From NCBI GenBank assembly GCA_050013235.1, contig JBEKFQ010000001.1:163712-227711 (forward strand): DNA of 64,000 bases, given 5' to 3'. The translations under genes and the position numbers were made by a program. Under the pieces are notes generated by a model. That model searched no databases. It saw only the letters and a program-made list of their open reading frames with translations, and was not told where the DNA came from. The stretch's first letter is position 1; each line of letters opens with the position of its first letter. Shown here in pieces: positions 25,491 to 30,402 of this stretch. Origin of the DNA: Beijerinckiaceae bacterium (GTDB lineage Bacteria > Pseudomonadota > Alphaproteobacteria > Rhizobiales > Beijerinckiaceae).

Positions 25491-25730
25491 CTAGCGGCGC
25501 GAGCGCAAAGCCTTCGGCCGCATTTCGGTCCGGGCCGATTGGATTGTCATCGACAACATATAAGCGAGGAAGGTGTCGCCTAGGACGTCGGCGATCTCTT
25601 TTGCCGCCGTGCAATGATCGACAAGCGCGACGAGTTGATCCAACCGGCTCTGCTCAAACGGCACCGTAACTACATCCGCAGGCTTATTCGCATCTTCCGC
25701 CGCGAATAGTCTTGGCTCTTTCACAATCAT
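25491..25730 (-). CDS. Small hypothetical helical protein divergent from luxI
   Basis: GGAGG SD before ATG 25730; C-terminal IADVLGDTFLAYMLSM helix pattern. Confidence 0.6.
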   Translation of the reverse strand: MIVKEPRLFAAEDANKPADVVTVPFEQSRLDQLVALVDHCTAAKEIADVLGDTFLAYMLSMTIQSARTEMRPKALRSRR

Positions 25731-25806
25731 CTTCACCCTCCACTTATCGCCACGTTATTTCCGGCGTATTTTACTTGTAAAAGCTATTTTAAAAACAAAC
25801 TCGCAA

Positions 25807-26051: not shown

Positions 26052-26071
26052 ACCTGGGCATCTCCACAGGT
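26052..26071 (+). promoter_or_regulatory. lux box upstream of luxI homolog
   Basis: ACCTG-GGCATCTCCA-CAGGT, 20 bp, same arms and spacing as the canonical lux box; about 60 nt upstream of ATG. Confidence 0.85.
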
Positions 26072-26129
26072 TTCAAACCCTCGCGAAATTGCTTTTATTT
26101 TTCAAAGAATTTCCGACGGAGTGGCCGAT

Positions 26130-26750
26130 ATGATCGAAGCTTTTACGCTCGCCACCGCGCATCACTTTGGCGATGCCTTGGCCTCGCAAGCGCGGTTGAG
26201 ATACAAGACCTTCGTGGCTCATCGTGGCTTGCCACACAACCATTACGCAGGGTTGGAATATGATGAGTTCGATACGCCCGCGGCAGTATACTTTGTATGG
26301 CGAGACAAAACCTTTACCGTGAGGGGGCTCGCACGCCTGCTTCCGACGTCGCGGCCCTACATGATGCAAAGCTACTGGCCGGAGCTTGTGGACGGCACCC
26401 CGCCCTCGGCTCCCGATATGTGGGAAGTGACACGTGTCTGCATCGACCGCTCGTTCCCAGCGGCGCAGCGGCTCCGAATTTTTCCCGAAATTTTCGCTGG
26501 AATTGACGAATATTGCGGGATGGAAGGGATCAAATCCCTCATCGGCGTGGCCACGCCACCTCTTGTCAAACACCATTCGCGTTCCAGCTTCCAGTGGCTT
26601 GGCCAACCCGCCGAAGTGGAAGGTAAGATCGAGCGCGCCTTCCTGTTACCGCAGGGCCTGATCCGAATGCACGAGACCTGCGAGAAACTGTCAATTCCAG
26701 AATCGGTCCTGCGAATTGCGCCAAGCGAATCTTTCGCGATCGCCGCTTAA
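26130..26750 (+). CDS. Acyl-homoserine-lactone synthase, LuxI family
   Basis: RLRYKTFV, GLEYDEFDT, ARLLPT..PYMM, WEVTRV; GGAG SD before ATG 26130. Confidence 0.9.
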   Translation: MIEAFTLATAHHFGDALASQARLRYKTFVAHRGLPHNHYAGLEYDEFDTPAAVYFVWRDKTFTVRGLARLLPTSRPYMMQSYWPELVDGTPPSAPDMWEVTRVCIDRSFPAAQRLRIFPEIFAGIDEYCGMEGIKSLIGVATPPLVKHHSRSSFQWLGQPAEVEGKIERAFLLPQGLIRMHETCEKLSIPESVLRIAPSESFAIAA

Positions 26751-26775: not shown

Positions 26776-27012
26776 GTGGCACGCAAGGACTTAAATCCGC
26801 TCAAGATCGCGCTCCAGATGCGAGAAGCCGTGGCCTATCTTGCGGCCCTCGCCTCCCGGTCCGAGTTGGAAAAAATCGCGCACGAACTCCTGAGGGTTCA
26901 TTTGAAACTCGGGACGCAAATCGACGCGATGATGGACGAGCAAAACGACGAGCGCGACCGCAACGTCCGTTATGGAAAAGCGGCACAGAAATCGAAAGTT
27001 TTGCGCCATTGA
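26776..27012 (+). CDS. Small hypothetical helical protein downstream of luxI
   Basis: Open frame 26716-27012; GTG 26776 or ATG 26818 start; AYLAALASRSELEKIAHELL amphipathic pattern. Confidence 0.5.
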   Translation: MARKDLNPLKIALQMREAVAYLAALASRSELEKIAHELLRVHLKLGTQIDAMMDEQNDERDRNVRYGKAAQKSKVLRH

Positions 27013-27030: not shown

Positions 27031-27050
27031 ACCCCGTGTATATCCCAGGT
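27031..27050 (+). promoter_or_regulatory. Degenerate lux-box-like site upstream of the aminotransferase
   Basis: ACCCC-GTGTATATCC-CAGGT, 20 bp, perfect right arm, flanks AA...T like the luxI box. Confidence 0.5.
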
Positions 27051-27151: not shown

Positions 27152-28465
27152 ATGTCCGTTTCAGTTGCTTATGCGCCTAACCATACAGGAACCTTCCTAG
27201 CCCATGAATCCGAGGTCCGGTCCTATTGCCGCAGAATGCCGCGTGTCTTCACGCGAGGCCGTAACGCTCATGTCTGGGACGAAGCCGGCACGGAATTCAT
27301 CGATTTCTTTTCGGCCTGCGGTTCGCTCAACTACGGCCACAACGACGCTCTGATCAAGCAAGCCGCGCTCGATCACCTGGAATCCGATTCCATCATCTGC
27401 GGGCTCGATCTACACACGTCGGCCAAACGCAACTTTATCGATGCGTTTCAGCGCATTGTTCTGGCGCCGCGCGGTCTGGATTATAAGCTTCAGTTTCCCG
27501 GGCCGACTGGCACGAATGCGGTCGAGGCGGCCCTAAAGCTGGCTCGCAAGGTCACCAAGCGGCATAATGTGGTGGCCTTCTCCCGTGGCTTCCATGGCAT
27601 GACGCTCGGCGCATTGGCCGCGACCTATAACAAGCAGGCTCGCCTAGGCGCGGGGGTTCCGCTCACCCATGTGACGCGCCTCGCCTACGAAAACGACGAA
27701 GATTGCGGTTTCCCGAGCCTCGACGCGTTCGCGGCCCGGTTCGAATCCGCCACGGCGGAAGCCGGAGCCCCGGCGGCCTTCCTTGTCGAAACGGTCCAAG
27801 GCGAGGGCGGCCTTCACGTGGCCTCCAAAGCCTGGCTTCAGCGTCTTGCCGCGCTGGCCAAGCGACTGGGATCCCTGTTGATCGTCGACGATATTCAAGC
27901 TGGCTGCGGGCGGACGGGACCGTTCTTCAGCTTCGAACGGGCTGGCATCAAGCCCGATATCGTCTGTCTCGCAAAATCCTTGAGCGGCCTCGGCCTCCCC
28001 ATGGCCCTCGTCCTCATCAAGCCTACATGGGACAAATGGTCTCCCGGTGAACATAACGGCACGTTCCGGGGCAATAATCTCGCCTTCGCGACGGCAACCG
28101 CGGCTCTCGGCTATTGGGAGCAAGCGAGCTTCCTCGGCCAAAAAGAGCAGAGCGAAACCCTGGTGCAAGCCTGGCTGGAAATGAAAAGCCGTATTTACCA
28201 CTCTTATGGGGTGAGCGCCCGCGGGCAAGGCCTGATGGCGGGATTGCGGTTTGCTTATCCCGGACAGGCGGAAGCCGTGGCCCGTGAAACGTTCAAGCGC
28301 AATGTGCTGATCGAAACCGCCGGTCAAAACGACGATGTTCTAAAACTCATGCCGCCGCTGACGATACCCCATGATGTCTTGATCGAGGGATTGGAGCGTA
28401 TCTCGCAAGCAATCGACGCGGTCCTGCCGGTTTCGGACACCGCCAGCCAAACCCTCGCGGCGTGA
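27152..28465 (+). CDS. Diaminobutyrate--2-oxoglutarate aminotransferase, EctB-like, without ectA/ectC
   Basis: ESEVRSYCR, GSLNYGHN, GLDLHT.AK, FPGPTGTNAVEAALKLARK, DDIQAGCGRTG, PLP Lys in LAKSLSG. Confidence 0.9.
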   Translation: MSVSVAYAPNHTGTFLAHESEVRSYCRRMPRVFTRGRNAHVWDEAGTEFIDFFSACGSLNYGHNDALIKQAALDHLESDSIICGLDLHTSAKRNFIDAFQRIVLAPRGLDYKLQFPGPTGTNAVEAALKLARKVTKRHNVVAFSRGFHGMTLGALAATYNKQARLGAGVPLTHVTRLAYENDEDCGFPSLDAFAARFESATAEAGAPAAFLVETVQGEGGLHVASKAWLQRLAALAKRLGSLLIVDDIQAGCGRTGPFFSFERAGIKPDIVCLAKSLSGLGLPMALVLIKPTWDKWSPGEHNGTFRGNNLAFATATAALGYWEQASFLGQKEQSETLVQAWLEMKSRIYHSYGVSARGQGLMAGLRFAYPGQAEAVARETFKRNVLIETAGQNDDVLKLMPPLTIPHDVLIEGLERISQAIDAVLPVSDTASQTLAA

Positions 28466-28506: not shown

Positions 28507-29223
28507 TCAAAGTCCGATAATGCCTTCCTGAATCGCGATGACAATCGCCGTAATCCGGTTGCTCGCATCCAATTTCCGCATTGCATTGCCGATATGAAAT
28601 TCAACCGTCCGTTCGGCGACGGAAATGATTTGGCTGATCTCCCAATTCGTTTTGCCGTCTTTAGCCCATGACAAGCATTCGCGTTCCCGTCCCGTGAGCT
28701 GAATCTTTCTTTCCTCACATTCGAGTTCGCTCGAGAGAAGAGCGGAATGGCGGATCCAGGTTTGGGCCGCGAGCGCATAAATGAAAGGCACCCGCCGGGG
28801 GTCCGGTTTAGGTCCGTCGCGAAGGCTCACACTTACAATATGCGTACTGCCGTCAGGATTATGGAACGGCATTGTCAGCCCGCTGTGAACGCCCATATCC
28901 TTGCAATCGTCGAAAAACGCCCTTTGGCATTGGGTGAGCGGCCGGTTGTGGGCTATTGTGTCCCAAAGGAACGGTTGCTTCGCGATAATTGTCTGCTGCA
29001 ATATAGGGTCTATTAGATTGAACTTATTGCCAAAGTACTGCTCAGTATACCCGCTTGGAAATTCTTTGGCAATAATACACACCTCTGTTTTGTGGGGCAA
29101 ATGAGCGAATACAATGTTTTGATATCCTTCATCTACAACAGAAGCTTGAAATAATGCGCCAAGATCGCTCGGGCTCGCGACAGCTTGGGTCGCTTCTAGA
29201 AAATCTTCAAAATTGGACGCCAT
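28507..29223 (-). CDS. LuxR-family regulator with autoinducer-binding domain
   Basis: FPSGYTEQY, IDPI, PFLW, HSGLT, LTGRERECLSWAKDGKTNWEIS, HTH. Confidence 0.92.
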   Translation of the reverse strand: MASNFEDFLEATQAVASPSDLGALFQASVVDEGYQNIVFAHLPHKTEVCIIAKEFPSGYTEQYFGNKFNLIDPILQQTIIAKQPFLWDTIAHNRPLTQCQRAFFDDCKDMGVHSGLTMPFHNPDGSTHIVSVSLRDGPKPDPRRVPFIYALAAQTWIRHSALLSSELECEERKIQLTGRERECLSWAKDGKTNWEISQIISVAERTVEFHIGNAMRKLDASNRITAIVIAIQEGIIGL

Positions 29224-30119
29224 GTTGCGCCCCCGCCCCCCCCCCCAATTTGTTCCACGGCGGCTTCCCCAGGTGAAAGCTCGCCGGAAACTTCTTGCAA
29301 GAATGAGAGAAGAAGCTCGTTGAATTGATCAGGCGCTTGCCAATGCGCGGCGTGACCAACCCCTTCGAGAACCTGAACCGCGCCGCGCCAAAGATTCCGG
29401 TAGGCCGGCTTTCGCAGATAGGCAAGATTGATAAAGGGGTCTTTGTCCCCGTGGAGCACGGCCAACGGCCGGACATCGCGTTCGGCCAAATCCCACTCGT
29501 CCAAACCAAGGCCGTTCATGGCGTTTTGGACCATCCAAAAGCGGGCATCCCCATCTGTTCTGCGAACTGCCTTCAAAAGGTCCGGCGTGAGAAATTCCGG
29601 GCCGCCAACAACCGCTTCGCCGTAAGCGATCGCATCCTCGAGGCTGAAGTCGCGCTGACCCGCGTAATTCATCGCCCCTGAGGGGAGAAAAGCCTCGGCC
29701 AGCGATTCCATCCGCATTTTAGCGGCGGGCGTTCCAACAATGAGAAGCGAAGCGACACGGGCGTCACGGCCCATCAATTCCAGCCCGACATGCCCGCCGA
29801 GCGACCAGCCCACGACATGGATGGATTCAATCGCGAAGAAATCAAGTATCTCGGCTACGATCCCCGCATAACCAGGAAAGCTATAGACCGCCGAAGGATT
29901 TTTTGCATTTTCCGACGCGCCGTGGCCAGGTAAATCCAATGCCAATACGCCATAGCCCTGCTCGCGAAGGAGCGAGATCTGGGCCGCGAATATTTCTTTA
30001 CAGGCGGAATTCCCGTGAATCAAAAGGACGAGCGGACGCCGGCCTAAATAATAAACTAGGTCGATACGCCCACAACTTACCTCTACCGCATGATGATAAT
30101 CCGGCATGTGATGTGCCAT
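29196..30119 (-). CDS. Alpha/beta hydrolase resembling AidH-type AHL lactonase
   Basis: IHGNS, DLPGHG, YSFPGYA, GWSLGGH nucleophile elbow, RTDGDAR, HGDKDPF, NLWRG, GVGHA; similarity to AidH recalled from memory, not searched. Confidence 0.75.
   Translation of the reverse strand: MAHHMPDYHHAVEVSCGRIDLVYYLGRRPLVLLIHGNSACKEIFAAQISLLREQGYGVLALDLPGHGASENAKNPSAVYSFPGYAGIVAEILDFFAIESIHVVGWSLGGHVGLELMGRDARVASLLIVGTPAAKMRMESLAEAFLPSGAMNYAGQRDFSLEDAIAYGEAVVGGPEFLTPDLLKAVRRTDGDARFWMVQNAMNGLGLDEWDLAERDVRPLAVLHGDKDPFINLAYLRKPAYRNLWRGAVQVLEGVGHAAHWQAPDQFNELLLSFLQEVSGELSPGEAAVEQIGGGGGGATWRPILKIF
29230..29246. repeat. C5-G-C11 homopolymer tract (G11 on coding strand) at hydrolase/luxR junction
   Basis: CCCCCGCCCCCCCCCCC read directly. 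Confidence 0.9.
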
Positions 30120-30388
30120 AACTCGCGTGACAATTGCTGCTCACCTCAGCAAGACTATTCACACCTCGCGCGTCATGCAACATTAAATTGCAATCTCGCG
30201 CGAAATGGATTTTTGAAAACCAAAAACAAACTTTATTTCAATGAGTTCAACCACTTAAGAGTTAACTGGCTTTTTTTTGAAATACAACCATAGAGGGTAT
30301 TTACGATATCGTTCTCGAAAAAGATGTTCGGTATTTCTGGCTCCGGCGCAGTGTTATACTTTATAACAAGAAGAATTCGCCCCACCCC

Positions 30389-30402
30389 GGGGGGGGGGGG
30401 GG
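30389..30402. repeat. G14 homopolymer between parC stop and hydrolase promoter region
   Basis: 14 consecutive G preceded by CCCCACCCC. Confidence 0.9.

Follow-up and report, generated by a model that had tools for sequence, protein, structure and literature searches.

An AidH-like α/β-hydrolase gene directly upstream of luxR in a conserved LuxR/LuxI module of a Beijerinckiaceae bacterium

The locus

A gene for an α/β-hydrolase that resembles AidH, an acyl-homoserine lactone (AHL) lactonase, lies directly upstream of a luxR gene in the genome of a Beijerinckiaceae bacterium (assembly GCA_050013235.1). The DNA analyzed is a 64,000-nucleotide (nt) stretch of contig JBEKFQ010000001.1 (positions 163,712 to 227,711), referred to here as the window, and positions are counted from its first letter. 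The open reading frame (ORF) of the hydrolase occupies 29196..30119 and encodes 307 amino acids (aa), as defined by the ORF list, Pfam and a sequence match in the Protein Data Bank (PDB). An earlier reading of the DNA from its letters alone, called here the sequence-only reading, had delimited the same ORF and omitted that it lies on the minus strand. Next on that strand is luxR (28507..29223), whose 238-aa product has the Pfam domains Autoind_bind and GerE. The gene for a luxI-type synthase (Autoind_synth by Pfam) lies on the plus strand at 26121..26750, and a perfect lux box, ACCTG-N10-CAGGT, is found 50 nt upstream of it (26052..26071, plus strand). The locus therefore holds the three parts that define a LuxI/LuxR acyl-HSL module, namely a synthase, an autoinducer-binding LuxR and a lux box before the synthase gene.

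Similarity of the hydrolase to AidH

Pfam places the hydrolase in the generic α/β-hydrolase families Abhydrolase_1/6 and in nothing more specific. A phmmer search of the PDB shows a similarity to AidH that far exceeds chance: AidH comes out on top (4g5x/4g8b/4g8c; E 1.5e-48, 169 bits), and the next protein chain follows at 4.4e-10. The six PDB entries for AidH from Ochrobactrum sp. T63 (4G5X, 4G8B, 4G8C, 4G8D, 4G9E and 4G9G) are the best matches, 126 bits above any other solved protein. In a BLASTP comparison with AidH, a check that the sequence-only reading had proposed, the two proteins are 36% identical over 268 residues, and the alignment has four gap positions. That reading had also listed a series of AidH motifs. 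All 11 were found, each aligned to the equivalent AidH segment, and they read IHGNS, DLPGHG, YSFPGYA, GWSLGGHVGLE, GTP, AGQRDFSLED, RTDGDAR, GDKDPF, NLWRG, GHA and APDQF.

The predicted structure leads to the same protein. An AlphaFold2 model of the hydrolase, built on 40 homologues, has a pLDDT of 91.6, with a folded domain at about aa 9-280 (29280-30095, minus strand) and a disordered C-terminal tail from aa 281 to 307, with pLDDT <50 at aa 287-307. When the model is compared to the PDB by Foldseek, the top eight matches are all AidH chains (E 2e-32, TM 0.93-0.95, rmsd 1.5 Å over 271-273 columns), and the next fold is that of BphD (8e-17, rmsd 3.5 Å). Pfam, the model and Foldseek agree on an α/β-hydrolase core with a five-helix cap over the active site, as in AidH.

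Relatives of the protein carry the JGI label "pimeloyl-ACP methyl ester carboxylesterase". As BioH (TIGR01738), the hydrolase scores 39.1 bits against a cut-off of 206.95. As the 3-oxoadipate enol-lactonase PcaD (TIGR02427), it scores 58.5 bits against a cut-off of 255.85, and its N-terminal third alone aligns. No NCBIfam model comes near its cut-off for this protein, BioH, PcaD and all others being far below. Hence a closer kinship to generic esterases, which the sequence-only reading had named as the outcome that would speak against it, was looked for and does not hold.

Active site and substrate pocket

The catalytic triad of AidH is Ser102/His248/Glu219. Its Tyr160 makes a hydrogen bond to the lactone ring oxygen and then to the new hydroxyl of the product, oxyanion contacts are made via the backbone of Asn33 and Leu103, and the substrate lies in a hydrophobic tunnel (PMC3532132). 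The window protein has equivalents of each of these residues: S106, H256, D227, Y166, N37 and L107. The nucleophile Ser106 (codon TCG, 29802..29804, minus strand, as are the codons that follow) sits in the GWSLGGH elbow and was placed by alignment with the S102G variant 4g8b. The triad acid, Asp227 (29439..29441), was placed with the E219G variant 4g8c, and His256 (CAC, 29352..29354) and Tyr166 (29622..29624), the latter with its role taken from PMC3532132, by alignment with AidH. The triad with its G-X-S-X-G elbow is thus present with a conservative exchange of Glu for Asp, together with the counterparts of Tyr160, Asn33 and Leu103.

The two proteins share the core and helical cap, the elbow, a Ser-His-acid triad, Tyr160 and most residues of the catalytic cavity. 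The window protein retains W105, H110, F144, M150, M196 and F229, which correspond to AidH W101, H106, F138, M144, M188 and F221. It differs from AidH in having Asp rather than Glu in the triad, F81 for Met77, V197 and A200 for Phe189 and Phe192 at the tunnel entrance, and an extra, disordered C-terminal tail. Among the tunnel residues tested, then, Phe138, Met144, Met188 and Phe221 of AidH are kept and Met77, Phe189 and Phe192 are replaced, suggesting that a substrate tunnel probably exists but with a different entrance.

Conservation across the clade of the window protein, which is described below, extends these findings to 122 members. Ser and His of the triad are invariant and the acid is Asp or Glu in all 122. 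N33, W101, H106, F138 and F221 (AidH numbering) are kept in every member and Leu103 in 121 of them. The Tyr160 position is Tyr in 118 of the 122, as against 6 of 19 in a sample from the AidH side of the family. The retention of triad and Tyr160 across the clade argues for selection for an active enzyme. The hydrolase would be a putative cytoplasmic lactonase of the AidH kind, with a serine triad and of the metal-independent type.

Phylogenetic position

A protein database holds 1148 relatives of the hydrolase at E <= 1e-20, and the best 120 of these 1148 are 42-100% identical to it. A maximum-likelihood tree was built from 73 sequences, comprising the window protein, a sample of the database matches, AidH, and homologues from whole genomes of the same order. 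A single branch (SH-aLRT 99) divides the tree in two. On one side are AidH and 18 homologues that are not linked to quorum-sensing genes; on the other are the window protein, 39 uncharacterized metagenome proteins and every homologue found beside quorum-sensing genes. The window side also includes one long-branch sequence, L036 from genome G258, that has no luxR or luxI neighbor. An in-frame TGA in the hydrolase copy of genome G019 was explained as read-through past the stop, and the called protein, P0033, is intact.

The window hydrolase falls outside the orthologous clade of AidH and is a member of its sister clade. The description of the protein as AidH-like, made in the sequence-only reading, is therefore upheld for fold and active site, given that AidH is the nearest solved structure by both sequence and fold and that the catalytic and ring-binding residues are kept; it does not extend to orthology.

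Linkage to the LuxR/LuxI module

The hydrolase follows the module through its relatives. In the genus of the window, represented by 21 species genomes, an orthologue of the hydrolase is present in four genomes, all of which have luxR directly downstream of it; the orthologous luxI is present in the same four only, and both genes are absent from the other 17. An even sample of the order, 401 genomes, includes 26 with a hydrolase homologue at E <= 1e-30. Three of these homologues, from genus g58, are linked to quorum-sensing genes and are 46%, 46% and 39% identical to the window protein. In each the hydrolase and luxR are on the same strand, with luxI directly after in two and about 17 kb away on the same contig in the third. 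None of the other homologues in the sample, at 30-42% identity, has luxR or luxI directly adjacent; in the nearest such case, genome G428, a luxR lies about 5 kb off on the opposite strand. Given the identities of the g58 proteins, linkage follows clade and not identity rank.

Ten further contexts, from metagenomes or metagenome-assembled genomes, were picked across the window clade, and the module is present in all of them. Outside the window, the hydrolase is thus located within a LuxR/LuxI module in 16 of 16 contexts, and 15 of these have it on the luxR strand as the gene immediately before luxR. In the remaining one, L021, the hydrolase is at the opposite end of the same module. With the window counted, all 17 modules include an AidH-like hydrolase. 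Genes of the AidH clade have no directly adjacent luxR or luxI, whereas those of the window clade are embedded in the module.

Peat and soil members of several Hyphomicrobiales (Rhizobiales) families carry the module, and at least one cultured isolate, Beijerinckia sp. L45, has it too. The organism of the window itself was detected in 20 or more runs from peat metagenomes. The module lies in the window as an insert of lower GC content between nuo/SPFH genes and parC, an arrangement that fits an accessory, mobile cassette. In two metagenomic contigs the module has transposase genes beside it (L046:4511-6154 and L047:1555-2547), and in the first of these a transposase occupies the expected place of luxI.

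The hydrolase-luxR junction

The 3' end of the hydrolase gene and the 5' end of luxR share 28 nt (29196..29223, minus strand, from ORF coordinates), and the same-strand overlap described in the sequence-only reading is therefore correct. Its conservation is another matter. At nine junctions measured from DNA, the distance from the hydrolase stop to the luxR start is -28 nt for the window, -17 nt for a relative with 86% identity, and +4 to +133 nt elsewhere. In seven other contexts, read from gene calls, the gaps are about 30-100 nt, apart from a single gap of about 490 nt. The overlap of 28 nt is not a conserved feature but belongs to this lineage, as a by-product of a poly-G tract: in the window, the reading frame of the disordered C-terminal tail passes through a G11-C-G5 run.

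This run (29230..29246, minus strand; C5-G-C11 on the plus strand) is located in the hydrolase tail, 6-22 nt upstream of the luxR ATG, where the nearest relative has a GGAGG Shine-Dalgarno sequence. The reading frame through the homopolymer at 29230-29246 determines the last 27 or so residues of the hydrolase and thereby the length of the overlap. Were the tract one base shorter, the tail would end in ...QHGVQF*, much like the ...RHGIQF* of the relative with its 17-nt overlap; were it one base longer, the hydrolase frame would enter the luxR frame, which is open upstream, without a stop. Neither change of tract length touches the catalytic domain.

An inverted partner of this tract, a G14 run (30389..30402, plus strand), lies between the parC stop and the upstream region of the hydrolase. 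The C11 part of the first tract (29236-29246) and the G14 run are the only G/C runs of at least 8 nt in the window, and the 4.15-Mb genome has five G/C runs of at least 10 nt in total, two of them at the hydrolase. No such homopolymer was found at the related loci examined. Both tracts are identical in four independent peat-metagenome assemblies, an exact agreement that indicates that the tracts are real, although contigs hide length variants. The tracts are taken to be specific to the lineage and may be prone to slippage. Alternatively, since they are inverted and flank the hydrolase with its upstream region, they may be a trace of the arrival of the gene.

Two of the long runs elsewhere in the genome also have neighbors of note. 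A C10 run on contig C25 (C25:13834-13843, outside the window) is about 100 nt upstream of an ORF that resembles the dienelactone-hydrolase family (C25:13948-14619), a family for which AHL-lactonase members have been reported. A G12 run on contig C40 is close to an ORF resembling a serine recombinase.

Regulation of the module

Three orthologous loci have a perfect lux box at the matching position before luxI, and a fourth has one with a single mismatch. In the window, no lux box with up to two mismatches is found ahead of the hydrolase; near the hydrolase in related loci there are two weak, 2-mismatch lux-box-like sites only, 60 nt upstream in L020 and 86 nt upstream in L024. Because the lux box is restricted to luxI, the hydrolase seems to be expressed together with the receptor and not in response to the signal. 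The sequence-only reading had seen in the arrangement a built-in negative feedback or timer, an idea that is not supported as it was put: a conserved lux box lies before luxI and none before the hydrolase.

A candidate promoter of a hydrolase-luxR unit, TTGCAT-N17-TAGTCT (30152..30180, minus strand), is not a lux box and is suggested by its conservation in the nearest relative. A consensus sigma-70 scan gave no match upstream of the hydrolase, and the matches that it gave inside luxR are probably due to chance (four found, 2.6 expected). No terminator-like site was found between the hydrolase and luxR in the window. Four sequencing runs of unknown kind were returned as RNA; their coverage of 3-5x, in short contigs, is even across genes and spacers, as for low-depth DNA, and they were not used as evidence of transcripts. 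Co-transcription of the hydrolase with luxR, which the sequence-only reading had deduced from the overlap, is plausible, and the conserved synteny in 15 of 16 contexts supports it better than the lineage-specific overlap. The simplest reading of the module would be two units, one induced by the signal, with luxI, a small ORF and a transaminase gene, and one independent of the signal, with the hydrolase and luxR.

Other genes of the module

The small ORF between luxI and the transaminase gene (26776..27012, plus strand) encodes about 80 aa and is conserved. It is followed by the gene for an EctB-like diaminobutyrate--2-oxoglutarate transaminase (27152..28465, plus strand; PRK09264, 579.7 bits against a cut-off of 438). 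The small ORF and the EctB-like class-III transaminase are found in 12 of the 17 modules, and in three loci all five module genes are colinear on one strand. A helical motif, M-x-[DE]-A-[VIL]-x-[YF]-L, is conserved in the product of the ~80-aa ORF, and in other loci the ORF often overlaps its neighbors by 1-4 nt, suggesting translational coupling. A second small ORF, again of about 80 aa, lies at 25491-25736 and is conserved with the module. Neither small ORF has a credible Pfam family.

A 2-mismatch lux-box-like site is present at 27031-27050, ahead of the transaminase gene in the window. Ectoine synthase (PF06339) was not found in the genome, in a search in which control genomes were equally silent. 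In a syntenic relative with the same SPFH/nuoA insertion site, the transaminase is split over three frames (L020:6606-7845), either as a pseudogene or by assembly error. A regulator of the XRE/HTH_3 type with the motif LTFQQ[IV]QKYE[KR]G recurs beside the module in four distant loci (L019:4448-4822, L021:6278-6718, L025:8978-9421 and L047:4471-4857); the copies are 37-48% identical and have no counterpart in the window.

The synthase and receptor of the module depart from their canonical forms. The canonical residues, Trp34 of LuxI and Trp57/Tyr53 of LuxR in TraR numbering, are lacking in every module copy aligned. In alignments with TofI and BjaI, LuxI of every copy has Leu at the conserved Trp34 position, and eight of the nine classic LuxI residues are kept. 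The window LuxR has Tyr in place of the Trp that contacts the lactone carbonyl (LasR W60/TraR W57) and Phe at the position of LasR Y56; the LuxR proteins of the modules all have Tyr at the former position and Phe, Leu or Val at the latter. These clade-wide substitutions hint at an atypical signal or binding mode.

Proposed role of the hydrolase

The best explanation, which we regard as moderately probable, is that the hydrolase is a lactonase of the AidH kind that opens the module's own signal and, co-transcribed with luxR, acts as an intracellular sink coupled to the receptor. The enzyme would most likely open the lactone ring of an acyl-homoserine-lactone-type signal made by the LuxI that is encoded 2.4 kb away. 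Because the genome has one LuxI and one matching LuxR only, the signal of the module is the obvious substrate. The hydrolase and luxR would be transcribed together from a promoter without a lux box, and luxI, the small ORF and the transaminase would be expressed behind the conserved lux box. In short, a signal-induced synthase would be opposed by a receptor that always arrives with its own signal-hydrolyzing enzyme. Such a sink could raise the activation threshold, filter noise and reset the system, and the placement of the lux box favors a constant, receptor-coupled sink over a signal-induced negative-feedback loop or timer.

Several observations weigh against this explanation. The hydrolase is a member of the sister clade rather than of the AidH clade, and an identity of 36% is not enough to establish substrate specificity. 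AidH Phe189 and Phe192 at the tunnel entrance are replaced, and the promoter assignment is a consensus guess. Leu at Trp34 of LuxI, Tyr at the lactone-carbonyl Trp of LuxR and the usual presence of the EctB-like transaminase are not explained by a simple pairing of an AHL with its quencher. In addition, an enzyme that only damps the signal would be expected to be lost often, yet all modules seen have kept the hydrolase, a hint that its role may be more essential.

Some of these observations would be accommodated if the hydrolase converts or matures the signal, as an obligatory step in making or perceiving one that is non-canonical. The enzyme might open a membrane-permeant lactone inside the receiving cell, such that the ring-opened acyl-homoserine is trapped there as the true ligand of LuxR, or its substrate might be a lactam-type head group derived from diaminobutyrate that the EctB-like transaminase supplies. 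The hydrolase is missing from none of the 17 modules and travels with the receptor rather than the synthase; the receptor clade lacks the lactone-carbonyl Trp and LasR Tyr56, as described above, and the synthase clade lacks Trp34; and the transaminase, found in 12 modules, stands behind the lux-box-like site in the window. The eight classic residues kept in LuxI, on the other hand, make ordinary SAM-dependent AHL synthesis the simplest reading. Two modules without the transaminase, L026 and L048, have the same LuxI and LuxR substitutions and still carry the hydrolase, which is thus independent of the transaminase. An α/β-hydrolase alone is also unable to drive ring closure from the free acid, and we know of no LuxR that uses a ring-opened AHL. 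A role in conversion is therefore considered unlikely, and the broader proposal that the whole conserved module uses a non-canonical signal, with the hydrolase as obligatory converter rather than quencher, is equally doubtful.

Other targets of the enzyme are less probable again. The AHL spectra of AidH and AiiO-AIO6 are broad, the occurrence of the organism in peat metagenomes points to life in dense mixed communities, and the hydrolase looks co-expressed with the receptor and is apparently not induced by the signal. It might thus serve mainly to destroy the non-cognate AHLs of neighbors, sparing the module's own signal and so sharpening the specificity of the receptor. This is improbable, given that no sign of discrimination against the cognate signal is seen in the protein and that tight co-inheritance with one LuxI/LuxR clade better fits action on the signal of that clade. 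Least probable of all is that the gene encodes an unrelated, BioH-like esterase or lipase that merely adjoins luxR, possibly as a quorum-regulated target gene. The JGI name of the relatives and the functional promiscuity of α/β-hydrolases could be cited for it, but the BioH score (39 bits against a cut-off of 207), the 126 bits by which AidH exceeds other solved proteins and the conserved ring-contacting Tyr all argue for AidH. Also against it are the position of the gene upstream of luxR, the lack of a lux box before it and its linkage to luxR in each of the 16 contexts. A receptor-coupled lactonase acting on the module's own signal remains the preferred explanation.

Comparison with known systems

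AiiO-AIO6 is an 85%-identical relative of AidH, and both are broad-spectrum AHL lactonases and characterized members of the family (PMC7406587, PMC3532132). Aii810, AiiM and AidA share about 11-14% identity with AiiO-AIO6 (PMC7406587). Together with JydB, these three belong to the same superfamily as the window protein and are reported to catalyze the same reaction, and the window protein, at 36% identity, is far closer to AidH.

Degradation of a bacterium's own signal has been described in other systems. An acylase of Brucella melitensis degrades the AHL signal of the same organism (PMC3859601). As would be the case for the window module, both B. melitensis and Agrobacterium tumefaciens (BlcC/AttM and AiiB) degrade their own AHL to modulate or end quorum sensing. 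The enzymes of these systems are metallo-β-lactamase-fold lactonases or acylases, whereas that of the window is a serine hydrolase encoded directly upstream of luxR in a conserved module. To our knowledge, the self-quenching enzymes of Agrobacterium and Brucella do not share a unit with the receptor gene, and they are regulated by other cues.

Synthetic oscillators built from LuxI, LuxR and AiiA also combine a synthase, a receptor and a lactonase in one circuit. In engineered quorum oscillators the lactonase is placed under a lux promoter, resulting in delayed negative feedback. The window hydrolase, in contrast, has no lux box before it, and the natural design looks like a constant sink.

A literature search directed at the linkage turned up neither an AidH-type gene associated with luxR nor the five-gene module, although coverage was partial and an earlier description is possible. 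The pairing of an AidH-type hydrolase with a LuxR module appears to be new, and signal hydrolysis seems to be a built-in part of the module.

Implications

Enzymes that degrade quorum signals are usually viewed as weapons against the signals of others, or as genes that stand alone. In these LuxR/LuxI modules, a homologue of AidH-type lactonases is a constant component and is placed with the receptor. With the atypical residues of synthase and receptor and the recurrent diaminobutyrate transaminase, the module is also a candidate for producing an undescribed signal, and because at least one cultured isolate, Beijerinckia sp. L45, carries it, the module is directly testable. If the enzyme is active, signal hydrolysis would be part of the design of this class of circuit, as a threshold, noise filter or reset, and the module would be a natural counterpart to the engineered circuits that join synthase, receptor and lactonase.

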